A stretch of DNA of 64,000 nucleotides from an uncultured Gemmatimonadales bacterium (GCA_963809895.1 CAWELD010000010.1:192001-256000), one strand, 5' to 3'. Shown: positions 37,832 through 50,221, counted from the stretch's first letter. The notes: a model not told the origin generated them from the letters alone. Made by a program: numbers and translations.

Positions 37832-38635
37832 TCAGGCGCGCGGGTGGTCCGCCGCCTCGCTGCGCAGGGGGGTCACGCTGGGGGTGCCGCTCGCGGGATC
37901 GATCGAGACGGACACCGGCCAACGGTACACCGAGGCGAGTACCTCTTCGGTGAAGACCTGCTCGGGAGTTCCCTCGGCCGCCACCCTGCCGTGGTCCAGG
38001 AGGAGGAGGCGGTCCGAGAAGCGCGCGGCGAGATCCAGGTGATGCGTGACGAGCAGCACGGTCATGCCTTCGTCGGCCGAGCGCCGCAGGAGCTCCAGGA
38101 TCGTCATCTCGTGCCGGATATCCAGCGAAGCCGTGGGCTCGTCCAGGACCAATGCCCGGGGCTCCTGCGCCAGCGCCCGGGCAATCCTCACGCGTTGCAG
38201 CTCGCCGCCGGAGAGCGTGCGGACGTTCCGCCCCGCCAGGGGGGTCACGTCGCAGCGGTCCAGCGCGGCGGTGATGGCGGCCCGATCGCGGGGGGCCTCG
38301 CCGCCCAGCGCTCGCTGATAGGGATAGCGGCCCATGGCCACCAGCTCTCGGGCGGTCATGGGAAAGGGCATGGGCTCCGACTGGGCCACGGCGCCCACCT
38401 CCCGCGCCAGCTCCCGACGCGGCCACTCCGCGACGGGTCGATCCCCGATCAGGGCCTCGCCACCCACGGGAGCCAGGAGTCCGAGAAGGGTCCGCACGAG
38501 CGTGGACTTTCCCGATCCGTTGGGCCCGAGCACGGTGTAGAGGCAGCCGGCGGGCACCCGCATGCTCACCCGATCCAGCGCCGCCGTCGCGGAGCCGGGA
38601 TAGTGCACGATCAGGTCGCGGGCCTCGAAATTCAC
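37832..38635 (-). CDS. Cobalamin/iron-chelate ABC transporter ATP-binding protein
   Basis: GPNGSGKS, MGRYPY, LSGGELQR, LDEPT. Confidence 0.92.
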   Translation of the reverse strand: MNFEARDLIVHYPGSATAALDRVSMRVPAGCLYTVLGPNGSGKSTLVRTLLGLLAPVGGEALIGDRPVAEWPRRELAREVGAVAQSEPMPFPMTARELVAMGRYPYQRALGGEAPRDRAAITAALDRCDVTPLAGRNVRTLSGGELQRVRIARALAQEPRALVLDEPTASLDIRHEMTILELLRRSADEGMTVLLVTHHLDLAARFSDRLLLLDHGRVAAEGTPEQVFTEEVLASVYRWPVSVSIDPASGTPSVTPLRSEAADHPRA

Positions 38636-39618
38636 GCCATGCTCCTGCGCAGCAGGACCAGGAAGACCGGTACGCCCACGAAGGCGGTCACGACCCCGAT
38701 GGGGATCTCGGTGGGAGGCAGGAGCGTGCGTGCGACGATGTCGGCCAACGTGAGGAAGGCCGCGCCGGTGAGGAAGGAGAGCGGGAGCAGCGCGCGGTGG
38801 TCGGAGCCCACCACCAGACGGAGGCCGTGGGGCACGATCAGCCCCACGAAGCCGATCACGCCCGCCACGGCCACACCGGCGGCGGTGATGAGCGATGCCA
38901 CCACGAAGGCCACGCGCTTCACACGCTCCACGTCCGTGCCCAGGTAGAGGGCGGTCTCCTCGCCCACCGACAGGAGGTTGAGGGCGCGCCCGAGCCCCAT
39001 GAGCACCGCCGCGGCGGGCAGCGTGTACGCGGCTGCCACGATCACGTCTCGCATGTCCGCGCCGGCGACGCTGCCCATCATCCAGAGGACGGCGCTGCGG
39101 ATGGTCGCGGCATCGGAGAGCGAGAGGATGAGCGCGATGACGGCGGCGAAGAAGGCGCCCACCACCACGCCCGCCAGGAGCAGGACCCGAACGTCCAGGC
39201 TCCGGTCCGCCGAGCGCGCCACCTGAAAGACCAGGAGGATGGCGAGGAGCGCACCGAGGAACGCAGCGACGGGCAAGGCCCCGGAGCCCATGGTGGTGAG
39301 CCCCAGCGCCAGCGCCAGGACCGCCCCAACCGCCGCGCCTCCCGAGATCCCCAGGATGTAGGGCTCGGCCAGGGGGTTCCGCAGCAGCGCCTGGAAGGTC
39401 GCGCCGGCCAGCGCCAATCCCCCGCCCACCAGCCACGCCAGCAGGGTCCGTGGAAGCCGGAAGCGAAGCACGATGTCGCGTGTGGCATCGTCTCCGCGGC
39501 CCCGCAAAGCGCCCCATACCTCCGTCGGCGACAGCGGGACAGGGCCCACCAGGACGGCCAGACCCACCGCGACCAGGGTGCACACCGCCAGGAGCACCGC
39601 GGCTCGCCGCCGTGTCAC
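38632..39618 (-). CDS. FecCD/BtuC family ABC permease
   Basis: RLPR, FQALLRNPLAEPYILGISGGA, GVIGFVGL.VPH, EIPIGVVT. Confidence 0.94.
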   Translation of the reverse strand: MTRRRAAVLLAVCTLVAVGLAVLVGPVPLSPTEVWGALRGRGDDATRDIVLRFRLPRTLLAWLVGGGLALAGATFQALLRNPLAEPYILGISGGAAVGAVLALALGLTTMGSGALPVAAFLGALLAILLVFQVARSADRSLDVRVLLLAGVVVGAFFAAVIALILSLSDAATIRSAVLWMMGSVAGADMRDVIVAAAYTLPAAAVLMGLGRALNLLSVGEETALYLGTDVERVKRVAFVVASLITAAGVAVAGVIGFVGLIVPHGLRLVVGSDHRALLPLSFLTGAAFLTLADIVARTLLPPTEIPIGVVTAFVGVPVFLVLLRRSMA

Positions 39619-40475
39619 CTCGAGATCCCCGGATGCAGCGCCCTGGCCACCGCCCACGCGGCCTCTGCCAGGTCCGGCCCCGGCTGTTCCACGGCGGCGG
39701 GGAGGACGCCGACGCGCGCGTCGCCCACCAGGGAGGCCGGGGGCGTGGTTCCGGGACCCACCAGGACGACCTCCACGTCTCGTACGCGGAGCACCTCCGG
39801 ACTCACGGGCCCGTACAGGCGGTCCAGGTCGGAGAAGACGTTGACGCCACCGCCGATGCGGATGAGCTGATCCACGAAGGTGCCCGGGCCCGCGACCCAC
39901 GGAGGCTCGCCTCCCAGCAGAAAGGCCGCGCGTACCGGTGGGAGCGCGGCCGCGGCTCGTCGGATGCGGTCGAGCTGGCCGTCCATGTCCGCCACCAGCG
40001 AGTCCGCCGCGGCGCGCCGATCGAGGACCTCACCCATCTGCCGGATGATGGCCCGCACGTCGTCGACGCCGTCGGGACGCACCGCGATCTGGGCGATGTC
40101 CAGCTCCCTCAGCCGCGCCGGGGTGTCGGTGTCCGAGGCGCCTCCGAAGCGGATGACCAGGTCGGGGTGCAGCGAGACCAGGACCTCCATGCTCGGATGC
40201 AGCCCCCCGCCCACGCTCGGCAACGACGCCAGTGACGGGATCGTATCGAAGTCGGTGCGGCCCACGAGGCGATCCCGGGCACCGAGGGCGACGATGATCC
40301 GGCTCACCGAGGGCACCAGCGAGATCACGCGCCGGGGCGTCGGCGCTTCGCCGTCGGCGGCGGGATGGCCCGCGGTGGCTCGCCCGGCGGAGCCTGCCGC
40401 CTGTCCCTGGGGTGCCTCGTGATCGCAGGCCGCCAGTCCCGGGATCAGGAGGATCGCCAGCAGGAGCCGGCGCAC
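39615..40475 (-). CDS. BtuF-like helical-backbone substrate-binding lipoprotein
   Basis: Lipobox LAAC, PRRVISLVPS, LVGRT, E....L.PDLV, GG.NVF, PGP. Confidence 0.88.
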   Translation of the reverse strand: MRRLLLAILLIPGLAACDHEAPQGQAAGSAGRATAGHPAADGEAPTPRRVISLVPSVSRIIVALGARDRLVGRTDFDTIPSLASLPSVGGGLHPSMEVLVSLHPDLVIRFGGASDTDTPARLRELDIAQIAVRPDGVDDVRAIIRQMGEVLDRRAAADSLVADMDGQLDRIRRAAAALPPVRAAFLLGGEPPWVAGPGTFVDQLIRIGGGVNVFSDLDRLYGPVSPEVLRVRDVEVVLVGPGTTPPASLVGDARVGVLPAAVEQPGPDLAEAAWAVARALHPGISR

Positions 40476-40518
40476 GGGCGGGCTGCGGACGGGACCACCC
40501 CCGGGATGGCCCACCGCG

Positions 40519-41538
40519 TCAGCGGTCGGCGGCGGGATTGGTCCGTTGCGTGCAGGGCTCCTCGAAGACCCGCTCCCAACGGTCCCCATCGCGGCGGTCC
40601 AGTGCGGCCACCCAGCGCGTGTCCTCGCCCAGAACCTCCAGCAGGATCTCGTTCTGACCGTCGCCGTCCCAGTCGGCCGCGCCGAACCAGCGTGCCGCCT
40701 TCTTGCCGCCCTCTCCTTCGACCTGGTACCAGTCATACGCCAGCTGGAAGCTCTCTCCGTGCGCGCTTCCGAGCACGAAGAGGCTGTACGCCACGGGTGT
40801 CGGCGACGGGGCCACCGCCAACTCGTCACGGAACATGAAGGTGGCGGCCACGCCGACCCCGGCGCTGTCCGGCGTGGGCACGACGTGCAGATCGGCTCGC
40901 GCCCGGCCCAGATCGTCGGGCCAGTAGGCGTCTTCTCGCATGATCACGCGGCTGGCCAGGTTCAGCGAGCCGCGTCGCGCCTCTTCGGTTTCACGGTCCG
41001 CGACGTAGCCCGCATGACCCGGGACGGCCCCGTCGGTGCGGCGCAGAGCCAGAAAGCGCGTGGCGCCGGAGGCCTGCAGGAGAAGCTCCGGTGTGCCGGA
41101 GACCGTGGGATGCACGGTGCAGGTCCCCGTCACCACGTCGGAGGTGTCGGCCACCAGGGTGCCGACGCGACTGCCACCGGCGAAGAGGAGGAACTCGGTC
41201 CCGGGCCGAAGACGGGTCGCCCGGAAGTGCTCCGCGAAGCCGGGCGCTTCGTCCTCGTTCGACAACGGGAGCAGCGTATCGCCGCGCAGCTCCGCTACCG
41301 GCCGCAGCGTGACGCGCGCGTCGGACCTGGTGCCCATGTACAGCACGGGGCCCGTGGGAAGCGGTGGCGGGGGCGGACCCTCCGGCGACTCGGCGGCGAG
41401 GCTGTCCACCTCGGGAGTCTCCACGGGAGGCGGAGGCTGGAGCCGCACTTCGGCGCCACCCCAATCCACGTTGTCGCAGCCCGCTGCCGTCACTATGATC
41501 ACGAGCGCCGCGAGCCGGCGAATCGCCTGTGATGCCAA
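40519..41538 (-). CDS. Hypothetical lipoprotein
   Basis: Lipobox-like AAGC, Pro-rich linker, C-terminal DWDGDG.NE (FG-GAP-like) motif. Confidence 0.7.
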   Translation of the reverse strand: MASQAIRRLAALVIIVTAAGCDNVDWGGAEVRLQPPPPVETPEVDSLAAESPEGPPPPPLPTGPVLYMGTRSDARVTLRPVAELRGDTLLPLSNEDEAPGFAEHFRATRLRPGTEFLLFAGGSRVGTLVADTSDVVTGTCTVHPTVSGTPELLLQASGATRFLALRRTDGAVPGHAGYVADRETEEARRGSLNLASRVIMREDAYWPDDLGRARADLHVVPTPDSAGVGVAATFMFRDELAVAPSPTPVAYSLFVLGSAHGESFQLAYDWYQVEGEGGKKAARWFGAADWDGDGQNEILLEVLGEDTRWVAALDRRDGDRWERVFEEPCTQRTNPAADR

Positions 41539-41702
41539 GGTTTCTCAGGGGTCGGAGGCGCACCCCCGGCACGGGGGCTCCCCGGTGGGCCCGGGGTCGG
41601 TCTCGAGGATCTGGAAGCTAGCCTTGGGCCGGGGACCGTGCAAAGCGGTGTCCCGCCATGGGCGGCATCGCTCCGGCGAGCTCTACCCGCACGAAGGATG
41701 CC

Positions 41703-42182
41703 ATGTCCGCGGACCCAGCTCACTTCAGGAAGGTGATGGGACACTTCGCCACCGGGGTGGCCGTGGTGACCTCCCGCACGTCGGAGGGCGACCCCTGCGG
41801 GGCCACGGCCAACGCGGTGGCGTCGGTGTCACTGGAGCCGCCCCTGGTGTTGGTGTGTCTCGCTACGTCGTCCGTGACCCACGGGTGCGTGCTGGAGAAC
41901 GGGGTGTTCGCCATCAACGTGCTGGACGCAGGCGCGGGAGCGCTGGCTCGGCGTTTCAGCCGAGGCCGGCGTGCCACCCGCTTCGAGGGTCTCGAGCTCG
42001 ACGAACAGGCCTCGGGCAGCCCGGTGCTGGCCGATGCCCTCGCCTGGTTGGACTGCCGCATCGAGGCCATTCATCCCGCGGGTGACCACGCCATCGTCGT
42101 GGGCCGGGTGCTCGCTTGCGATGCCCGGGCCGGTGACCCGCTGGTCTTCTTCCGCAGTGGTTTCCGCGAGGTGGCGCCCTGA
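41703..42182 (+). CDS. Flavin reductase family protein
   Basis: FRKVMG.FATGV.VVT, SVSLEPPLV, FAINVL, GDH...G.V. Confidence 0.93.
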   Translation: MSADPAHFRKVMGHFATGVAVVTSRTSEGDPCGATANAVASVSLEPPLVLVCLATSSVTHGCVLENGVFAINVLDAGAGALARRFSRGRRATRFEGLELDEQASGSPVLADALAWLDCRIEAIHPAGDHAIVVGRVLACDARAGDPLVFFRSGFREVAP

Positions 42183-42778
42183 GACCCGGCGCGCGTCTGG
42201 CCGGCGTTCCGGCCTTCGCACTCGGCCTCGTGGCCGCGCTGGTGGCCGAGCTCGCCGCGGGGCTGCTCCTCTTCGCCGCCGACGGGTTCCTGCAGGCGCT
42301 CACGCTGGTGCTGGCGGTGGGTCTGGGATCGTTGGGATTGGGGCTGTTGACGGCTCCGTCGGGGCCGTCGCTTCCGGAGATCGCCCGATCCCTTCGCAGG
42401 CGCTGGTTCCTGGTGCTCGCGGCCCTCGGCGTCGCCGGCGGGCTCTCGGTGGTCTGGTCTCTCGGCGCGGGCCTGCAGCAGACGCCACCGGCTCGTGGGT
42501 TGGCACTGGCGTTCCTGGAGGCCTTCCCCCTGTACGCCGTCGGCACCGTGCTGGGCGCCGTGCAGGCGCTTCACCCGGGCTCGCGGAGCGGCGCCATGGC
42601 GGCGCTGGGCGGGGCGTTGGGCGTGGTCCTGGAAGGGAGCGTGCTGCTGGTGCGCTTCGAGCCCGTCTCCATCTACCTCCTCTGCATCGTCCTCCTGTCG
42701 GGCTCCGCGCTCGTGCACGGTCGGGCTGTGTTGGCGCTGGTCGCACCACCCCCCCAGAACCCGGAGGGGCCGCCATGA
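42179..42778 (+). CDS. Hypothetical multi-pass membrane protein (start uncertain: CTG 42179 or GTG 42230)
   Basis: About 6 hydrophobic segments; overlaps both neighbours by 4 nt if the CTG start is used. Confidence 0.65.
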   Translation: MRPGARLAGVPAFALGLVAALVAELAAGLLLFAADGFLQALTLVLAVGLGSLGLGLLTAPSGPSLPEIARSLRRRWFLVLAALGVAGGLSVVWSLGAGLQQTPPARGLALAFLEAFPLYAVGTVLGAVQALHPGSRSGAMAALGGALGVVLEGSVLLVRFEPVSIYLLCIVLLSGSALVHGRAVLALVAPPPQNPEGPP

Positions 42779-43842
42779 AGTTGGCTCATCTCTCCGACCT
42801 CCACCTCGGCCACCGGGCCTTCGACCGTACCCAGGGTGGGCAGAATCTCCGGGAGCTCGACGTGGCGGCGGCCTTTCAGCGGGCGGTGCAGGAGGTGATC
42901 CTTCAGGCGCCCGACGTCATCGTGGTCGCCGGCGACGTCTTCGATCGTCCCGCGCCTCCGCCCGGCGCCCTGGTGACGCTGACCCGGGGCCTCGAACAGC
43001 TCCGTAGCGCGCTGCCCGAGACCCCGGTCCTGATGGCAGGCGGCGCCCGCGACGTTCCGCGGCGCTCGGGAGACCCGGGCGCGCTGGCGGCCATGGACGC
43101 CTTCCCCCATGTGGAGGCCGCCACCTCCACGGCGCGCAGCGTCCTGTTCCGGGAGCGGTCGCTCCACGTCCAGCTTCTGCCGCACCGGGCCGTGCTGCGC
43201 GGGCCGGTGCCGGTCATGGAGCCGGATCCCCGGGCACGCTGGAACGTCCTGGTGGCTCACGGCCGGTTGGCGGGACCGGGGGACCCCCCCGACCTGGGCC
43301 TGCCGCTGGAGCTGGACGGTTGGGACTACGTGGCGCTGGGCTCCCGCCACACGCATCAGGTGGTGCGGCCCGGAGTCGTCTACGCTGGCGCCCTGGAGCG
43401 GGTGGGGCCGACGCCCTGGAAGGAGGCCGGCGAGGAGAAGGGCTTCGTGACGGTGGATCTGGACACGGGCGGCGTCCGCTTCCATCCGGTGCGCGGGCGG
43501 CCCGTGGTGGCGCTGGCGCCCACCCGCGTGCCCGCCGGCGACGCCCGGGCGCTCCGGGAGCGGGTGGCCGAGGTGGTACGCGAGGTTCCCGGTGGCATCG
43601 ACGGCAAGATCGTCCGAATCCGCCTGCGTGGCCCGGCGCCGGCGGACCTGACCGCGCTCCAGGGCGCCTTTCTCACGGGCCTCGCGGCCCGCGCCCTCCA
43701 TCTGTCGGTGGAGGTCGAGGCGGAAGGCGGTGGACGCGGGCCGGCGCGCGAGCTTCCCGATCGGGTCGCGGAGCACCTCGCCGATGACGCGCCGCCGGCG
43801 GTGGGCGCCCTGGTGGACCGGGTCCTGCAGGCCGGCGCATGA
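42775..43842 (+). CDS. SbcD/Mre11-like metallophosphoesterase with degenerate motifs III and V
   Basis: MKLAHLSDLHLG, AGDVFD, VAHG, YAGALER, KGF; GNHD replaced by GARD, GHxH by GSRH. Confidence 0.85.
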   Translation: MKLAHLSDLHLGHRAFDRTQGGQNLRELDVAAAFQRAVQEVILQAPDVIVVAGDVFDRPAPPPGALVTLTRGLEQLRSALPETPVLMAGGARDVPRRSGDPGALAAMDAFPHVEAATSTARSVLFRERSLHVQLLPHRAVLRGPVPVMEPDPRARWNVLVAHGRLAGPGDPPDLGLPLELDGWDYVALGSRHTHQVVRPGVVYAGALERVGPTPWKEAGEEKGFVTVDLDTGGVRFHPVRGRPVVALAPTRVPAGDARALRERVAEVVREVPGGIDGKIVRIRLRGPAPADLTALQGAFLTGLAARALHLSVEVEAEGGGRGPARELPDRVAEHLADDAPPAVGALVDRVLQAGA

Positions 43843-45338
43843 GGATCGGGGCGCTCAGGACCCATTCCCTGCCGGGGGTCGGCGCGGCCGAGGTCGAGCT
43901 GCCCGGAGGGCTGGTGGCGGTGGTGGCCCCCGACGGGCGTATCCGACGCGCGCTCGCCCGCATACTGGAAGGCGAGGCTTCGGGCGCGGCCTCCGACGTG
44001 CTGCTCTTTCCTCGCGTACCGGATCCGGTGCTGGCGCGCCTTCCCGAGGGGCTGCTGCACCGGCTGCGGACTGGAAGCGGACTGGCCGACGCCGATCAGG
44101 TCCTGGAGGTGGCTGCGCGGGCGTTGGCGTGGGCGGCGGGCCTGGACCGGGTCGAGGCCGCGCGGGTGAGGCTGGCGCAGTTGAGGGGGAATCCCGAAGA
44201 GTCCGGCGGGCCCACGGCGGAAGCGCTTCTGGCGCGCATCCGTGAGCTCGAAGGGGCGCCGGCCGAGCTGCACGGTCTGGAAGAGGAGCTCCGGGAGCTC
44301 AGGGGCGACGACGTGGAGGTGTCGGGTGACCTGGAGCAGGCGACCATGGAATGGTTGCGCGAGCGCCAGGACGCCGAGACCCAGCTCCAGACCTATCGCG
44401 ATCGCGCCCGTGAGCTGCGGAGCCGCCTGGGGGAGCTCGCCGACGCCGGAGCCGACGCCGATTGCCCCATCTGCGGGCGCCCCCTCCGGGATCACCTGCC
44501 CAGGGTCAAGGAGACGTTGGAGGAGGAGTGGGAGGCCGTGGTCCAGGATGGAAGCTGGTGGCGACGCCGGCGGGAGCAACTGGATCTCAAGCCGGACCGT
44601 CTGCAGGAGCTCGAGCGCAAGGCGCTGCGCGTGCACGCGGCGACCGAAGAGCTCGGCGAGCGCGTGGACAGGCTGCGCGACCGGGTCCGGGAGCTGGACG
44701 ATCTCAGGGTGCGCCTGGCGTCGTTGGCTCCGGACGACGGCAGCGCCGATCCCAGAGGCATCGTGCCGCGCACCGTGTGGGAGGCGGCCGACCGGGCGCT
44801 GGCGGGCACCGCGCGTGAGCTGAAGGCCGAGGCCCGGGCTCGGCTCCTGGACCGCGCATCCGGATTCCTCGGACGAATCACCGCGGGGCGCGTCCTGGGC
44901 ATGGGATGGGCCCCGCCGGGGCATCTCACGCTGGAGGGGATGGACGCCCCCCTGTATCCTCCGTCGGAAGAGGAAGCGGCGGCGGCTACGGTCGCGGCGC
45001 GCCTGGCGGCCGTGGAGCTCGTCTGGGAAGACGCCGGAGCCAAAGGCGCCGGGCTGCTCCTGGGCGACGGCTTCGATCGCCTGGACGAAGCGGCCCGTGT
45101 GCGAGCCGTGGACCTCCTGCGCCAACGTGCCCGCCGCGGCTTCGCGCAGATCGTCGTCGTGACGCGCGGCGAGGTGGTAGACCTCTTTCCAGAGGGCTTC
45201 GACGCAGTGGTGGAGCTCCGGGGTGACGGGTCCGGCGCCGCCTCGGTCCCGGCGGGCACGGGTGTGCTGAGGCTGGTCCCCACTCAGGCCGGTCCCTCGT
45301 CCGGTAGCGCCGCCACGGCCGTGACCTCGAGCAGGTAG
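43839..45338 (+). CDS. SbcC/Rad50-like coiled-coil protein with zinc hook and degenerate ATPase motifs
   Basis: Coiled coil around CPICG; terminal segments align by eye to Rad50 ATPase halves without canonical Walker A/B. ATGA overlap with the sbcD-like gene. Confidence 0.8.
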   Translation: MRIGALRTHSLPGVGAAEVELPGGLVAVVAPDGRIRRALARILEGEASGAASDVLLFPRVPDPVLARLPEGLLHRLRTGSGLADADQVLEVAARALAWAAGLDRVEAARVRLAQLRGNPEESGGPTAEALLARIRELEGAPAELHGLEEELRELRGDDVEVSGDLEQATMEWLRERQDAETQLQTYRDRARELRSRLGELADAGADADCPICGRPLRDHLPRVKETLEEEWEAVVQDGSWWRRRREQLDLKPDRLQELERKALRVHAATEELGERVDRLRDRVRELDDLRVRLASLAPDDGSADPRGIVPRTVWEAADRALAGTARELKAEARARLLDRASGFLGRITAGRVLGMGWAPPGHLTLEGMDAPLYPPSEEEAAAATVAARLAAVELVWEDAGAKGAGLLLGDGFDRLDEAARVRAVDLLRQRARRGFAQIVVVTRGEVVDLFPEGFDAVVELRGDGSGAASVPAGTGVLRLVPTQAGPSSGSAATAVTSSR

Positions 45339-45676
45339 CCACGCTTCAGCTCACCGCACGGGATCACCGCTCGGGCGGGGCGATGCTCGCCGAGCATCTC
45401 TCCGTAGATGCGGTTCACCTCCGGCCACAGCTCCAGGTCCGCGACGAAGATCGTCACCTGCAGAAGGTGGGACAGGTCGGTACCCGCGGCCTTCAGGACG
45501 GCCTCCACGTTGTGGAGTGCTCGCCGGATTTGACTGTCCGCGTCCGCCACGGGTGCGTCCGGCGCCACCGGATTGATGGGAAGCTGGCCGGCCACGTACA
45601 CCAGGCCACCGTGCACCATGGCCTGGCTGTAGTGCCCGGCGGGTCGGGGCGCTTCGGAAGTTTGAACGATTCGCAT
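45284..45676 (-). CDS. RidA/YjgF family protein
   Basis: AP.P.GHYSQA...VAGQLP, N..Y, PARA, LLEV. Confidence 0.93.
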   Translation of the reverse strand: MRIVQTSEAPRPAGHYSQAMVHGGLVYVAGQLPINPVAPDAPVADADSQIRRALHNVEAVLKAAGTDLSHLLQVTIFVADLELWPEVNRIYGEMLGEHRPARAVIPCGELKRGYLLEVTAVAALPDEGPA

Positions 45677-45679
45677 GGC

Positions 45680-46852
45680 TCATTGGGCTTGATAACGTGC
45701 GTGCTCCCGAGCCGGCGGCGCCTCGGGCCGCCAGCGGAAGCGCTCCAGGCGTGGGTTCTCCACGCCCTCGACGGCGTCGGCGACCAGGCCACCCAGGAGG
45801 GGCGCGAACTTGAAGCCGTGCCCGCTCCCGCCCGACGCCACCACCAGCGCCGGGCGATGGGGGTCCCGGGCGATCCAGAAGTCGCCGTCCGTACTGTCGC
45901 AATAATGACAGGCGCGCGTTCCTGCCAGGGGAGCGTCGGCGAGGCGGGGGATGGCGTCACGAAGGAACCGGCGCCCGCGGGCCTCCCATTCCGCCGGGAC
46001 GGGGCCGGGGTGCTCGGGCCGCCCCGGCCAGCCGCGTCCGTGGTGGCCGATCTTGACGATGCCGTCTTCTCCTGCCGGGAAGCCGTACCAGCCGGTGCCG
46101 GTGATGTCGGCGCTCCAGACCGGCAGCCGAGGCGGTCGCAGCTCGTCGGCCGACCCGGGTCGTAGAAGCAGGACGGGCAGAGCCACCGGCCGGAGCGCGC
46201 CGGCCAGAGCGGGCACGAGCTGCGGTGTCCAGGCGCCCGCGGCCACCACGATGGCCTCGGCCTGCACGAACCCTCCGCCACGGAGCTGGACGCCCGCCCC
46301 GTCGACCGTGTCCGCCACGATCGTCTCGGCCCGGCCCTTCCGGATGTCGACACCTTCGGCGCGCGCCGCGGCGGCCAACTCCGACACCGCCTGCCCGCTC
46401 TCCACCCAACCGGCGTGGAGGCTGAGATATCCGTCCACGAACGCGTCTGCGTTCCAGGCCGGATGCTCGCGCCGGATGGCGGCCCGGTCCAGCCTGCGCA
46501 CCGGGTGTCCGAGCCCCGCCACCGCCTGCATGCTCTCGTACTCGAATCCTCCGGCCGCCAGCGGGCCGCGGCTCAGGAGCAGAAAGCCCACCTCGTGAAA
46601 GAGGGGCCGGGTGAACAGGTCCTGGTTCCAACAGCGCCAGCCGTCCAGCGCTTCCTCTGCGAGCCGGGTGAGAAAGAGGTCGCTGCCGTAGTCCATGCGC
46701 ACGATCTTGGAGCGGTCGGTGGACGAGGCCTCGGGGCGAGGAATGGGACCGGGCTCGACCAGGGTGACGGCCCACCGGCGCCGGGCCAGCTCCCGGGCGG
46801 TGGTGACGCCGAAGACTCCGCAGCCGATCACCAGGGCGCGCCTGGTAGGCAT
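45680..46852 (-). CDS. FAD-dependent amine oxidase (sarcosine/pipecolate/fructosyl-amino acid oxidase family)
   Basis: VIGCGVFG, ASSTD.SKIVR..YG, CHYCD..DGDF.I, GGSGHGFKF.P. Confidence 0.88.
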   Translation of the reverse strand: MPTRRALVIGCGVFGVTTARELARRRWAVTLVEPGPIPRPEASSTDRSKIVRMDYGSDLFLTRLAEEALDGWRCWNQDLFTRPLFHEVGFLLLSRGPLAAGGFEYESMQAVAGLGHPVRRLDRAAIRREHPAWNADAFVDGYLSLHAGWVESGQAVSELAAAARAEGVDIRKGRAETIVADTVDGAGVQLRGGGFVQAEAIVVAAGAWTPQLVPALAGALRPVALPVLLLRPGSADELRPPRLPVWSADITGTGWYGFPAGEDGIVKIGHHGRGWPGRPEHPGPVPAEWEARGRRFLRDAIPRLADAPLAGTRACHYCDSTDGDFWIARDPHRPALVVASGGSGHGFKFAPLLGGLVADAVEGVENPRLERFRWRPEAPPAREHARYQAQ

Positions 46853-46926
46853 GACGTCCTGCCGGGAGTGGGGAAAGTGGGTAGCTTGACGTGCGATGGC
46901 GCAGTCTGACACACGGGAGGTGAGCC

Positions 46927-47892
46927 ATGCAACTCCGGGTCCTGTCGCGCGACGATCTCCACGGACTCCTGGACATGCCCTCGGCCATCGCGGCCATGCG
47001 CTCCGCCTTCGAGCAGCTCTCCGACGGCCGGGCGCAGATTCCGGTGCGGGCCGCCGTGGAGGGGCCGGTCGCGACCCTGCTGGCCATGCCGGGTCGCCTC
47101 GAGGTGCCCCAGGCGCTGGGGGCCAAGCTCGTGGCCGTGGCGCCCCACAATCGGCGCGAGGGTCTGCCGGCGATCCACGCCGCCGTCGTCCTTCTCGACG
47201 CCCTGTCGGGCGTGCCCCGAGCAGTGATGGAAGGATCCTGGCTCACCGCGCTTCGCACAGGCGCGGCCTCGGGGCTGGCCACGGAGCTGCTGGCGAGGCG
47301 GGATGCCCGTGTGCTGGCGGTGGTGGGAGCCGGTGCTCAGGCCCGGTTCCAGGTGGACGCCGTGCGGGCGGTCCGCAGCGTGGAAGAGGTGCGGATCCAT
47401 TCGCGCGGCGGTCGCTCCGCCCGGGCCCTGGCGTCGGAGCTTCATGACGTGAGGGTGGAGGTGGCCGAGACCGCCGACGACGCGGTGCGTGGCGCGGACG
47501 TGGTGGTGACCGTCACCGACAGTAGGGCGCCGGTCGTGTCGAACGATGCCGTGACGCCCGGTACACACCTGAACGCGGTGGGCGGCTACCGGAGGGACAT
47601 GCAGGAGCTGCCGACGTCGCTGATGGCCCGGGCCCGGGTGGTGGTGGATCAGGTGGCGGCGGCCCTGGCCGAGGCCGGCGATGTGGTGATCCCCCTGGAG
47701 GCAGGCGTCCTCGACACGGCCGAGCTCGTGGAGCTGGGGGCCGTGGCGGCGGGGGCGGCGCCCGGCCGTCGCCACGTCGACGAGATCACGGTCTTCAAGT
47801 CGGTGGGGAGTGCTGCTCAGGATCTGGCCGTGGCCGCCCTCGCGCTCGAGCGCGCGACCACGGCCGGCGTAGGCACGCTGGTGGAGCTCTGA
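46927..47892 (+). CDS. Ornithine cyclodeaminase/mu-crystallin family protein
   Basis: MPG, K.V...P.N...GLP, LTALRTGAASG, GAG.QA, FKSVG.A.QD. Confidence 0.93.
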   Translation: MQLRVLSRDDLHGLLDMPSAIAAMRSAFEQLSDGRAQIPVRAAVEGPVATLLAMPGRLEVPQALGAKLVAVAPHNRREGLPAIHAAVVLLDALSGVPRAVMEGSWLTALRTGAASGLATELLARRDARVLAVVGAGAQARFQVDAVRAVRSVEEVRIHSRGGRSARALASELHDVRVEVAETADDAVRGADVVVTVTDSRAPVVSNDAVTPGTHLNAVGGYRRDMQELPTSLMARARVVVDQVAAALAEAGDVVIPLEAGVLDTAELVELGAVAAGAAPGRRHVDEITVFKSVGSAAQDLAVAALALERATTAGVGTLVEL

Positions 47893-47908
47893 GCCGGGTC
47901 GGTCGGGC

Positions 47909-50221
47909 TCAGTTCCCCAGGGTCGACCAGGCTTCGCCCTCGGCGCGGTACCGATCCATGGCGGTGGTATCGCCGCGCGCGTACTCGCCCTGGGCCAGGG
48001 CGTAGTAGGCCCAGGCGTAGTAGTTGGGGATGCCCAGGGTGGCCACGTCGGGCCAGTGGTCCCAGTCGGGAATCCCGCCGCGGTGCATGAACACCGAATC
48101 CACCAGGACCTGGGTGCGCGGCAGGTCCAGCCAGTTTCCCGTCACCTGGTTCAACGGTGACCCCTCCGGCATCTGCACCACGCCCACCTCGGTGGAGTCG
48201 GGCAGTGGATGCGGATTCAGCTTGAAGGCGAGGCCCTGGCGCACCAGGTAGTCGTCCAGCCCCAGCGAGGTGGCCGCGTTCCCGCTGCTGGCGAAGTGGA
48301 TCGGACGCTGGCCCATGGAGTTGTTCAGAATCGCCAGCGCGTATTGCTGCCACGGGTACAGGACCGTGCCCTGGGGCAGGGTGGCGCGCACGTCGCCGAA
48401 CGCGAAGGTGCGCGCCCGGTCCAGCGGCACGTAGCTCTGCGCCACCTGATCGATGGTCGCGTCGTCCAGCGGCAGGATGGAGGTGGTGGGAGCCTGCACC
48501 GGTCGGGGCAACACGAGGGCCGCCTTGCCCTCCGCCGCGGCTGCGGCGGGGTCGTCGGTGTAGACGGCGTTGGTGTTGTCCGCCTGGTAGCTACGCTGGC
48601 AGAGGATGCGCGTGGGATCGTCCCGCCACGATACGCCGGTGGGGCACGGGGTGGTCAGATCGCGCAGCTGCTTGGCGTACCACCCGGTGTTCAGGTAGGA
48701 GGTGACGATGACGGTCACGTCTCGCCGGATGCCCTCCACCTCCTGCAGGTACCAGAGCGGGAAGGTGTCGTTGTCTCCGTTGGTGAACAGGACGCCGTAC
48801 GGCTCCACGCTCATGAGGAGATTGTAGGCCCAGTCGCGTGCTGCGTAGTTGCCCGCCCGACTGGCCCAGGTCCAGTTGAGCCCCAGCGGGAGCAGGGCCA
48901 GCATCAGCACGGGCGCCCCCCGCGCCAGGCCACCCAAGCGCTCCGTGAGCGTCTGCCAGATCGCCACGAGGCCCATGCCGGCCCACAGCCCGAAGACCGA
49001 AAAGCTCGCCACGAAGAAGTAGTCCCGTTCGCGCACCTCGTGGAGATCGAAGTTGTTCTGCGGGTCCGGGATCGTGTACCCGTAGCGGAAGTTCAGATAG
49101 TAGATGAGCCCCACCGACAGCGTGCCGAAGAGCACGAAGGTGTACCAGAAGCTGGCCCGGTCGCGACGCTGGTGCTCCATGGCTCCCCAGACCCCGAGTC
49201 CGGTGAAGAGCATGGTGAAGAGGATGCGTAGCGGCGGGAAGAGCGAATCCTCGCCGGACACCGACCGGGACCACTGCCAGTCGAAGTACTGCAGGTAGTT
49301 CAGGAGCTGCGAGGCCAACGGGGCCTGCCGGGGCTGGAGCGGAGGCTTGTCGTACTGCTCGCGCTTGAGCGCCGCGTTGAGTGGCTCGCACCCGGCGTTG
49401 CCGTAGGTGGCGATGCTGGTGAGGGCGCTGCCCATGCTCTGGCATTCGGGCGCCGCCTCGTTGATGACCGGATCGAGCTCGGCGCGGATCGGCAGGACCA
49501 GGTGGATGGAGAGACCCACCAGCACCGCGACGATGGCCGGGGGATAGAGCCGCCAGTTGAGCAGAGCCTTCGGGTGGACCAGGAGCACGAACACGCCCAT
49601 GGCCGGGGCCGCCAGGAAGGCCATGAGGTGGTTGCCCACGCTCAGCGCCAGGATGAAGACCATGAGGACGAGGAGGTTGTCGTCCTTGCCCTTGCCCAGG
49701 TTCTCCTGCCACCGGATGACGAGCCAGCTCAGGAGGGCGATGGTGAGCAGCGAGACCGTGTAGACCTTCTCGTTGACGTTGGACTGGTTCCACACGGTGA
49801 AGGCCGTGGCGCTGACCAGGACCGCGGCGGCGGCACCCACGAGCCGGAAAACACGGCTGGTCGAGAAGTGCCTCAGCACGTGGTGGATGACCAGGAACCA
49901 GAAGGCGTGCGCCCCCGCGCTCATGAAGGCGCTGAACAGGTTGATCCGCACCGCCGGGGACAGCCCCGTGGGAGCCAGCAGCACGGACCAGGCTCGCGCC
50001 AGGACCACGAACAGCGGGTTTCCGGGGGGATGGGGGATGCCCAGGATGTAGCCGGTGGCGATGTACTCGCTGGTGTCCCAGAACGCCGTCGTGGGGGACA
50101 GCGTCACGGCGTAGAGCATGAACACGGCCAATCCTGCGACGGCGGCCCAGCCGTAGGGGGGAGGTGGGCTCGCGCCGGCCTCTGGCGCCACCGTGCTGGT
50201 CTGATCCGTCGCCGTGCTCAC
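47909..50221 (-). CDS. DUF2723 (TMEM260-like) membrane protein, putative GT-C glycosyltransferase
   Basis: WDTSEY, GIPHPPGNPL, W.QS...E.VY, RERDYF, FTNGDNDTFPLWYLQEVEG.R.DV. Confidence 0.88.
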   Translation of the reverse strand: MSTATDQTSTVAPEAGASPPPPYGWAAVAGLAVFMLYAVTLSPTTAFWDTSEYIATGYILGIPHPPGNPLFVVLARAWSVLLAPTGLSPAVRINLFSAFMSAGAHAFWFLVIHHVLRHFSTSRVFRLVGAAAAVLVSATAFTVWNQSNVNEKVYTVSLLTIALLSWLVIRWQENLGKGKDDNLLVLMVFILALSVGNHLMAFLAAPAMGVFVLLVHPKALLNWRLYPPAIVAVLVGLSIHLVLPIRAELDPVINEAAPECQSMGSALTSIATYGNAGCEPLNAALKREQYDKPPLQPRQAPLASQLLNYLQYFDWQWSRSVSGEDSLFPPLRILFTMLFTGLGVWGAMEHQRRDRASFWYTFVLFGTLSVGLIYYLNFRYGYTIPDPQNNFDLHEVRERDYFFVASFSVFGLWAGMGLVAIWQTLTERLGGLARGAPVLMLALLPLGLNWTWASRAGNYAARDWAYNLLMSVEPYGVLFTNGDNDTFPLWYLQEVEGIRRDVTVIVTSYLNTGWYAKQLRDLTTPCPTGVSWRDDPTRILCQRSYQADNTNAVYTDDPAAAAAEGKAALVLPRPVQAPTTSILPLDDATIDQVAQSYVPLDRARTFAFGDVRATLPQGTVLYPWQQYALAILNNSMGQRPIHFASSGNAATSLGLDDYLVRQGLAFKLNPHPLPDSTEVGVVQMPEGSPLNQVTGNWLDLPRTQVLVDSVFMHRGGIPDWDHWPDVATLGIPNYYAWAYYALAQGEYARGDTTAMDRYRAEGEAWSTLGN

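Follow-up and report, generated by a model that had tools for sequence, protein, structure and literature searches.

What does an SbcCD (Mre11-Rad50) complex do once the residues for ATP binding and for two-metal cleavage have gone from its subunits? The question is raised by two coupled genes in a 64,000-nucleotide stretch of DNA from an uncultured Gemmatimonadales bacterium (GCA_963809895.1 CAWELD010000010.1:192001-256000; hereafter the window). The first, open reading frame (ORF) A (P0001; 42775..43842, plus strand), encodes an SbcD/Mre11-like protein of 355 amino acids (aa) in which the two-metal site is half dismantled, and the second, ORF B (P0002; 43839..45338, plus strand), encodes a short, 499-aa SbcC/Rad50-like protein without nucleotide-binding motifs. 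The Mre11-Rad50 field has long sought to separate ATP-driven head engagement and cutting from hook-linked scaffolding, using engineered point mutants. Here, evolution has made that separation itself and has kept it under selection across many genera: the ATPase motifs and one metal site are gone, whereas both folds, the second of the two metal sites and the hook persist. As set out below, the pair is a modified orthologue and does not stand as an additional paralogue next to a functional copy.

Catalytic motifs are degenerate and the zinc hook is kept across the family

Both frames are intact and coupled, with the stop codon of ORF A and the start codon of ORF B sharing the ATGA at 43839-43842. 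In the SbcD-like protein, phosphoesterase motif I (SDLHLG, 42793..42810) and motif II (GDVFDRP, 42931..42951, which contains the family-specific Arg58) are kept. Motif III reads GARD for GNHD (43042..43053), with Asn replaced by Ala and the catalytic His by Arg; the motif IV region reads VAHGR (43252..43266), with a His that is present here and unconserved across the family; and motif V reads GSRH for GHxH (43339..43350), in which the first His is gone and the second retained. In the SbcC-like protein, degenerate strings occupy the Walker A position (APDGRIRR, 43926..43949), the signature position (PSEEE for xSGGE, 44961..44975), Walker B with the D-loop (LLLGDGFDRLD for LLxLDEVFGSLD, 45054..45086) and the H-loop (VVTR for xITH, 45156..45167). 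The zinc hook CPICG (CxxC, with C209 and C212; 44463..44477) lies in the hook-proximal coiled-coil apex (residues 161-252; 44319..44594), which is the best-conserved part of the protein. Both ORFs, the ATGA coupling and the strings GARD, GSRH, APDGRIRR, PSEEE, LLLGDGFDRLD, VVTR and CPICG had been quoted in a first-pass annotation that read the locus as an apparently dead SbcCD pair with motifs I and II kept, and each was recovered in the sequence as described.

The assignment of the degenerate strings to their motifs was supported in three ways. A HMMER profile alignment placed the GxRD of the family on GNHE, and the GSRH position on GHIH, of M. jannaschii Mre11. The head strings of the SbcC-like protein aligned to GENGSGKS, SGGE, LDE and SH of archaeal Rad50 in a profile search against solved structures. 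Finally, the MAFFT columns obtained with ten canonical Gemmatimonadota SbcCD pairs agreed with the same assignments, the canonical relatives reading GDVFH at motif II, GNHD or GDHD at motif III, ALGHYH at motif V and GPNGAGK[ST] at Walker A.

Relatives were collected by a word-seeded search at E ≤0.001, in which ~8,000 candidates were scored for each query and 400 relatives of P0002 and 363 of P0001 were obtained. The best 120 of each list show 39-97% identity and have Longimicrobiales, Gemmatimonadetes or Gemmatimonadota as their named sources; among the 120 listed homologues, 19 are 822-866 aa long. Because the same replacements recur in a family of hundreds of proteins, chance is ruled out as their cause.

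Among 108 aligned SbcD-like relatives, H10, D54, G90, R92, D93 and H192 are present in all 108, D8 and D57 in 107 each and R58 in 99. The Asn position of motif III (91) is occupied by A in 106, S in one and V in one, the His position of motif IV (162) by H in 49, Y in 44, C in 14 and T in one, and the first-His position of motif V (190) by S in 52, G in 34, H in 12, F in six and Y in four. The subunit thus departs from the set of five phosphoesterase motifs with two metal sites and a catalytic His, the Asn and the His of motif III being replaced in 108/108. By reference to the P. furiosus Mre11 structure, we take D8, H10, D54 and H192 to be the four ligands of one Mn site, and the lost or variable positions are presumably the ligands unique to the second Mn site together with the catalytic His. 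Judged from these columns, the nuclease site appears to be half dismantled in an orderly manner, not randomly eroded. The earlier description of this subunit as dead needs correction. With the residues aligned to the ligands of one metal site invariant, as is the new Arg92, the subunit is not simply dead, and of GHxH only the first His is lost, so that half of motif V is kept.

In the SbcC-like protein, the loss extends over the whole ATPase head. None of 78 aligned relatives has a GK[ST] at Walker A, where the Lys position (36) is R in 75, L in two and M in one and the position of the second Gly (35) is L, V, S, I or T. At the signature, position 377 (Gly in SGGE) is E in 39, D in 34 and Gly in none of the 78, followed by E at position 378 in 74. 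The Walker B Asp position (409) is G in 54, A in 21, D in two and H in one, position 410 is D in 35, E in 33 and H in seven, and H-loop position 443 is R in 74 and His in none. The hook cysteines, on the other hand, are present in 78/78 (C209) and 77/78 (C212) relatives, so that a hook is recognizable by sequence, its zinc binding being putative. The head strings vary by genus, with GRxR, GPLR or DPLW at Walker A, SEEE, AEED, PDED or GGED at the signature and GD, EE, SE or PE at Walker B. An ATP-free latch, made of the Walker A Arg and the acidic EEE signature of the other protomer, was considered and dropped, as genera g3 and g5 have neither.

The distribution of conserved columns follows the same division. 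In the degenerate family the mean majority fraction is 0.78 for the apex (residues 161-252; 49 of 92 columns at ≥0.9), 0.55 for the N-terminal lobe (N-lobe; 5 of 84 columns) and 0.62 for the C-terminal lobe (C-lobe; 22 of 130). The order is reversed in canonical Gemmatimonadota SbcC, a small set of eight, with 0.70-0.87 for the heads as against 0.45-0.63 for the coils and hook. This comparison of alignments indicates that the hook apex has taken over from the ATPase head as the most constrained region.

When 1.84 billion cluster representatives were searched by profile, 122 matches at E ≤1e-30 were obtained; the G..G.GK[ST] pattern occurs in none of the best 88 and in 15 of the best 150, of which 11 are 728-822 aa and four 488-595 aa long. 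Short, hook-bearing SbcC-like proteins with Walker A kept were seen in P0371 (488 aa) and P0380 (502 aa), the latter also having SGGD and LDE, while P0248 (548 aa) is without Walker A and keeps the DE of Walker B. A search of 401 Gemmatimonadota genomes with P0380 gave no close relative, the only matches being to the hook region of canonical SbcC of f2 and f3 (defined below).

The Mre11 and Rad50 folds are retained

Curated family models recognize the two proteins only in part. Pfam Metallophos matches residues 1-70 of the SbcD-like protein, and TIGR00619 (sbcd) matches residues 1-89 with 45.9 bits, under its cut-off of 77.65. In the SbcC-like protein, Pfam Rad50_zn_hook matches with an E of 0.0021, below its cut-off, no match to AAA_23, SbcC_Walker_B or AAA_27 was found with Pfam, and the NCBIfam Rad50 and SMC equivalogs touch the coiled coil only, the Rad50 equivalogs giving ~15-24 bits against cut-offs of at least 700.

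The structural comparison reached further. AlphaFold2 models, built on the 108 SbcD-like and 78 SbcC-like aligned relatives, had a predicted local distance difference test score (pLDDT) of 91.5 and 90.4, respectively. The top Foldseek matches of the SbcD-like model are all Mre11 or SbcD (3av0_A, E 2.6e-17; 4lty_A, E 2.3e-12), and those of the SbcC-like model are Rad50 and SMC heads. In a second look (VIA), the SbcC-like model (residues 1-471) superposed on the P. furiosus Rad50 head 3qkt_A with Z 18.2 and a root-mean-square deviation of 4.2 Å over 265 residues, and on E. coli SbcC 6s85_D with Z 16.4; the E. coli SbcCD structures 6S6V, 6S85 and 7YZO are among the fold matches. In the same model, CPIC (residues 209-212) lies between two long helices. 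The models thus predict that the small subunit keeps the Mre11 nuclease and capping fold and that the large one keeps a Rad50/SMC head, with N- and C-lobes, both of them matched, and an antiparallel coiled coil. Given confident models and these structure matches, both proteins can be taken to retain Mre11/Rad50 architectures.

The pair is an orthologue of canonical SbcCD

For comparison, the 13 kb surrounding the match were taken from each of 20 further genomes, giving ten loci of the family to which the window belongs (f1) and ten from f2-f5, of which f2 and f3 share the order of f1, and f4 and f5 its class. All ten other f1 loci (genera g1, g14, g15, g23, g5, g10 and g3) are degenerate in both proteins, and the coordinated motif loss that had been claimed for the window is therefore real and family-wide, extending to 11/11 f1 pairs, 7 genera, and the 108 SbcD-like and 78 SbcC-like sequences described above. 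At none of the 11 f1 loci is the frame of either gene broken; in three of these D and C are fused in one open frame of 844-969 aa. At all ten f2-f5 loci, the adjacent pair is canonical. There, SbcD is 384-402 aa long (488 in locus L035) and has GNHD at eight loci and GDHD at two, with ALGHYH at nine and ALGDYH at one, and SbcC is ~800-817 aa long, with GPNGxGK[ST], SGGEED, LDE, ITH and CPTCxRP.

The genes upstream link the two forms. The flavin-reductase-like gene that stands upstream of the pair in the window does so in seven of the ten other f1 loci and in both same-order canonical loci (L035 and L036), and a homologue of the membrane-protein gene next to it is found upstream in all ten other f1 loci and in canonical L035 (f2). 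As this homologue lies 5' of canonical sbcCD in L035, the neighbourhood predates the motif loss. In a maximum-likelihood SbcD tree, the 11 degenerate and 10 canonical rows are split by one 100/100 branch, and upon addition of 16 fused representatives the canonical group still forms one side of a 100/100 branch, with a length of 1.03 substitutions per site. An adjacent, co-oriented sbcD-sbcC arrangement was thus found by both position and tree, and from the adjacency at all ten canonical loci, the upstream synteny with L035 and L036 and the tree we conclude that the pair is an orthologue of canonical SbcCD.

Two fused D-C proteins, P0271 (846 aa) and P0275 (887 aa), have GDVFH together with GAHD or GGHD, that is, with the catalytic His kept and the Asn lost, and are without Walker A. 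In the SbcD tree, both split off close to the base of the degenerate group; by their motifs, they may be intermediates in a stepwise loss.

Matches to P0002 at E ≤1e-5 occur in 319 of 401 Gemmatimonadota genomes (f1 47/69, f4 163/166, f5 94/94, f2 5/7 and f3 2/4), a tally that includes one genome flagged as unpublished (G157), on which nothing else here depends although the counts for P0380 and for the SbcE-like ATPase (below) sampled the same phylum, and that mixes canonical and degenerate pairs, since all eight f4/f5 loci examined, L035 and L036 are canonical and those of f1 are degenerate. When one genome from each of 80 f1 genera was searched with a canonical SbcC query, a full-length match was found in one only (G452), the remaining matches being to the hook region, to the C-lobe or to unrelated SMC-like frames. 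The match in G452 (G452:C160:3832-6219) is a 924-aa frame with 32% identity and lies beside a hook-region match typical of the degenerate form; this canonical-like SbcC may be a secondary acquisition.

The pair is kept under purifying selection

The ratio of nonsynonymous to synonymous substitution rates (dN/dS) was estimated by the Nei-Gojobori method (NG86) on codon alignments of all locus pairs, and pairs with dS of 0.01-0.9 and at least 85% aa identity were considered unsaturated. In these, dN/dS is 0.05-0.24 for the SbcD-like and 0.06-0.22 for the SbcC-like gene; for the former, examples are L033/L034 (dS 0.12, ratio 0.19) and L030/L048 (dS 0.46, ratio 0.10). The near-identical pair L020/L054 (dS 0.005) gave 0.755 on a handful of changes, and divergent pairs gave 0.3-0.7 at a proportion of synonymous differences (pS) of ~0.5, which we read as saturation rather than relaxed selection. 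Related metagenome loci numbered 18, at 35-61% identity and none of them near-identical to the window, so that for the window's own lineage dN/dS rests solely on ten single-base differences in near-identical contigs from three metagenome runs and one metatranscriptome, nine of them synonymous and one D208N, each carried by a single low-depth contig.

Cumulatively, these ratios argue that the pair is kept under purifying selection and is not in decay. A dN/dS below 1 had been proposed as the mark of a maintained pair, and it is what was obtained; the opposite scenario, in which close relatives would carry intact motifs and the window alone would be decaying neutrally, is excluded. The first-pass annotation was thus correct in the class of explanation that it chose, a repurposed pseudo-enzyme complex, as follows from family-wide loss together with purifying selection.

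The genome also encodes an SbcEF-like pair and Ku

In the genome from which the window comes (95% complete), a search with the zinc-hook model PF04423 matched the SbcC-like ORF only, a search with PF13558 (SbcC_Walker_B) gave nothing over its cut-off, and a canonical SbcC query (from L036) again matched only the SbcC-like ORF. A canonical sbcCD elsewhere in this genome was thus not found by hook, Walker B or canonical SbcC queries, and the suggestion that the pair is a hook-mediated regulator of a true SbcCD loses its partner.

TIGR00619 matched three genes of the genome, namely the SbcD-like ORF, a YhaO-like gene and one weak match. The YhaO-like gene (G000:C10:280507-281751) is a second Mre11-like gene, of 414 aa, with intact DxH, GDLFD, GNHD and GHVH. 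It adjoins an 880-aa AAA_27 ATPase that has Walker A, LDE and CH, a hydrophobic central segment and no CxxC. Judged by these motifs, the two genes (G000:C10:277858-281751; L024:859-4752, minus strand) constitute an SbcEF (YhaON)-like pair, located ~22-26 kb past the end of the window and ~40 kb from the degenerate pair. In the sampled phylum, the SbcE-like ATPase is nearly exclusive to f1, where 48/69 genomes have it; the counts elsewhere are 0/7 for f2, 0/4 for f3, 0/166 for f4, 3/94 for f5 (weak matches), 4/13 for f10 and 1/3 for f12. Of the 69 f1 genomes, 38 hold both systems, nine the degenerate pair only, ten the SbcE-like ATPase only and 12 neither. A Ku gene was also found (G000:C10:576216-576752; PF02735, E 2.7e-52), and an end-joining pathway may therefore exist alongside.

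Neighbouring genes and features of the locus

Upstream of the pair, a flavin-reductase-like gene (41658..42182, plus strand; Pfam Flavin_Reduct, E 2.1e-43) marks the conserved sbcCD locus. It is followed by a gene for a 182-aa membrane protein (42230..42778, plus strand), the stop codon of which overlaps the start of the SbcD-like gene in a second ATGA (42775-42778); this gene is a conserved neighbour and its partnership with the pair is putative. The membrane protein is ~180-230 aa long in the window's genus, whereas other genera add long, differing C-terminal soluble extensions (frames of 445-477 aa). The homologues compared come from L028-L030 and L033-L035, and the frame in L035 runs into a dehydrogenase-like region. 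No Pfam family was found for the 182-aa protein of the window or for the 445-aa form of L028.

The other neighbours, by Pfam, are convergent RidA, DAO and ornithine-cyclodeaminase genes. The pair thus occupies the ancestral housekeeping place of sbcCD among metabolic genes, with no defence island. In such a locus, and with PADLOC matches confined to the coiled coil (see below), the proposal that the pair is a decoy for phage inhibitors finds no support. The RidA (L-PSP) gene (45284-45676, minus strand) covers the last 55 nucleotides of the SbcC-like gene, and this part of the latter (45284-45338) codes for a genome-specific C-terminal tail that is poorly conserved and of low confidence.

In 41300-45800, the sole sigma-70-like promoter match, a consensus match only, is at 41471-41499 (plus strand), 5' of the flavin-reductase-like gene (mean of 0.0 in shuffled sequences); its position would fit a single transcript of the flavin-reductase, membrane-protein, SbcD-like and SbcC-like genes. 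The one terminator-like site found in the same interval lies inside the SbcC-like gene and is at chance level. Long overlapping ORFs abound on both strands of 38000-50000, for example at 43380-45125 (minus strand, 581 aa) and 41971-43842 (623 aa); as stop-poor alternative frames are expected at 72-74% G+C, these were not treated as genes.

What the complex may do

The reading to which we lean, tentatively and as something close to an even call, is that the pair is an SbcCD orthologue without ATP motifs and without the second metal site, which likely acts as an ATP-independent, hook-dimerised complex that binds or tethers DNA ends and does not cut them. In this scheme, the two proteins would still assemble in the Mre11-Rad50 style and dimerise through the hook. 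With no nucleotide there would be no clamp-and-cut cycle, and the complex would act by its shape. The pocket formed by one metal and an Arg could hold a DNA phosphate without hydrolysis, the hook apex would mediate dimerisation or the binding of a partner, and the complex as a whole would bind or bridge DNA ends, leaving catalytic end processing to the separate, intact SbcEF (YhaON)-like pair.

Several observations weigh against this DNA-end-binding reading. The strict one-metal ligand set and the invariance of Arg92 would, as far as the alignment can tell, fit a remaining or altered catalysis at least as well. The genus-variable positions of the head look like release from constraint and not like a rebuilt common interface. 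No match to P0002 was found in 22 of the 69 f1 genomes, including 11/11 of genus g2, from which it follows that the pair can be lost. Nine f1 genomes hold the degenerate pair and no detectable SbcE-like ATPase, so that a division of labour between the two systems is not obligatory, and the scenario in which SbcEF was gained and SbcCD thereby released from catalysis, attractive as it is, concerns a single lineage and amounts to one evolutionary event, not to statistics. Evidence of expression is weak, consisting of a single 259-nucleotide contig in one metatranscriptome (X12).

A broader formulation, which we consider possible and on balance doubtful, extends the same idea to the family as a whole. 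It sees a Mre11-Rad50 (MR) machine without a nucleotide cycle, of which the hook apex and the metal-Arg pocket would be the working parts, an SMC-like pseudo-ATPase of a new class that would recognise or bridge DNA ends, or another phosphate-bearing ligand, by structure alone and that would have arisen once, as an SbcEF-type nuclease took over cutting.

The main rival holds that the SbcD-like subunit is a changed enzyme, in which the single metal site together with Arg92 (and Arg58) hydrolyses some phosphoester, be it a different nucleic-acid end structure or a small molecule, with the SbcC-like protein serving as a nucleotide-free arm. We regard it as unlikely and nevertheless place it before the others, because a passive scaffold would hardly account for so invariant a ligand set: D8 (107/108) and H10, D54, H192, R92 and D93 (108/108) form a site that a pure scaffold is not expected to keep so strictly, and next to it the Asn position tolerates A, P, V, E, G, R, T, L or S. 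That the basal fused proteins P0271 and P0275 keep the catalytic His (GAHD, GGHD) suggests stepwise remodelling. Against such an enzyme, however, the ligands of the second metal are gone or unconstrained, the Asn being replaced in 108/108 and the His of motif IV and the first His of motif V being found in only 49 and 12 of the 108, respectively; an Arg substituted for the catalytic His would serve poorly as a general acid; and phosphoesterases of the calcineurin-like fold as a rule depend on two metals.

It is less probable still, and in our view improbable, that the pair is a regulator or adaptor of another machine, such as the SbcEF-like nuclease or Ku-dependent end joining, which it would recruit or restrain through the hook apex. 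The apex (161-252) is the most constrained region, as expected of a binding surface, the genome encodes Ku, and 38/69 f1 genomes hold both the degenerate pair and an SbcE-like ATPase. Yet the two occur apart, with nine f1 genomes having the pair without the ATPase and ten the reverse, and the two loci, ~40 kb from each other, are not co-transcribed. Moreover, since the SbcE-like ATPase is without CxxC and the only hook of the genome is that of the SbcC-like ORF, hook heterodimers with the SbcE-like protein are not possible.

We give very little credence to a structural role at the membrane, or one unrelated to DNA, in partnership with the membrane protein encoded upstream, even though the genes overlap at 42775-42778 and a homologue lies 5' in 10/10 other f1 loci. 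The homologue is found equally 5' of canonical sbcCD in the sister family f2 (L035), which also takes the ground from the earlier suggestion of a membrane scaffold; its C-terminal part differs between genera, and the protein belongs to no Pfam family; and in g14, g15 and g23 some 770 bases separate the matched part from the SbcD-like gene. Finally, a decaying relic, that is, pseudogenes that happen to be free of stops, is hardly credible, for although all catalytic motifs are hit at once and 22/69 f1 genomes are without a match, the frames are intact in all 11 f1 loci with dN/dS of 0.05-0.24, dozens of columns are invariant across proteins 36-97% identical, the models reach pLDDT of 91.5 and 90.4, and 7 genera with ~100 clusters at 50% identity rule out a single recent clone.

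The pair offers a small system (355 + 499 aa, or a fused chain of ~840 aa) in which nucleotide-free DNA binding or bridging by the MR architecture, the role of the hook-proximal coiled coil, and the question whether a single-metal Mre11 site binds or catalyses all become testable, with the canonical orthologues of sister families as built-in controls. It also carries a warning for annotation, as public records name many proteins of the family 'DNA repair exonuclease SbcCD'.

Comparison with known systems

The nearest known system is canonical SbcCD itself, as found at L036 (SbcD of 384 aa, SbcC of 814 aa) and L035 (488 and 800 aa). The pair shares with it the gene order, the Mre11 and Rad50 folds, motifs I and II, the last His of motif V and a CPxC hook with the same flanks (EEWESVVQD here and DEWESLVQD in L035). 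It differs in having no Walker A, signature, Walker B or H-loop, in reading GxRD for GNHD, and in leaving the His of motif IV and the first His of motif V unconserved. Its SbcC is ~480-500 aa long as opposed to ~800-817, with a shorter N-lobe and shorter coils, the hook apex and not the head is best conserved, and the subunits are often fused. We found no description of a naturally ATPase-less SbcCD in the literature covered, which did not extend to subscription journals.

Loss of chemistry from this fold has precedents. Vps29 and the B subunits of replicative DNA polymerases are inactive calcineurin-fold scaffolds that have lost most of their metal ligands. As in these proteins, the metallophosphoesterase fold is kept here after loss of the two-metal chemistry; what sets the present family apart is that one ligand set is invariant.

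A comparison with defence systems leads to Lamassu, in which LmuB and LmuC are described as an antiviral exaptation of SbcCD, LmuB retains a prototypical Walker A and defence requires ATP (PMC12663957). The present pair resembles Lamassu in being an SbcCD descendant in a new use with a shortened SMC-like subunit, and some Lamassu systems have a Zn hook as well; unlike Lamassu, it has a full Mre11-fold subunit where LmuC is reduced, no adjacent LmuA effector gene, and the ancestral locus. PADLOC LmuB models match the SbcC-like protein at E 3.5e-8 to 1.2e-6 over coiled-coil residues 108-287 only, Foldseek matches to LmuB are weak, and the SbcD-like protein has no PADLOC match. Assignment to a defence system of the Lamassu type was therefore rejected, as the PADLOC LmuB, PbeC and JetC matches cover the coiled coil only, Walker A is absent and no LmuA neighbour is found.

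In Bacillus subtilis, SbcE/SbcF (YhaN/YhaO) are a second Mre11-like and SMC-like pair, reported to be involved in double-strand-break repair (PMC2811018). The likeness lies in the pairing of an Mre11-like with an SMC-like protein, SbcEF existing beside or in place of SbcCD; the difference is that SbcE is an AAA_27 protein with a unique central domain and no zinc hook, while the pair in the window has the hook and no AAA_27 match. The SbcEF features are found in this genome at the other locus, G000:C10:277858-281751, with its intact Mre11-like partner. Taken together, the residues for the chemistry are missing and scores fall below the curated cut-offs, whereas structure, position and phylogeny all place the pair with SbcCD, and it is therefore best called a degenerate SbcCD orthologue.

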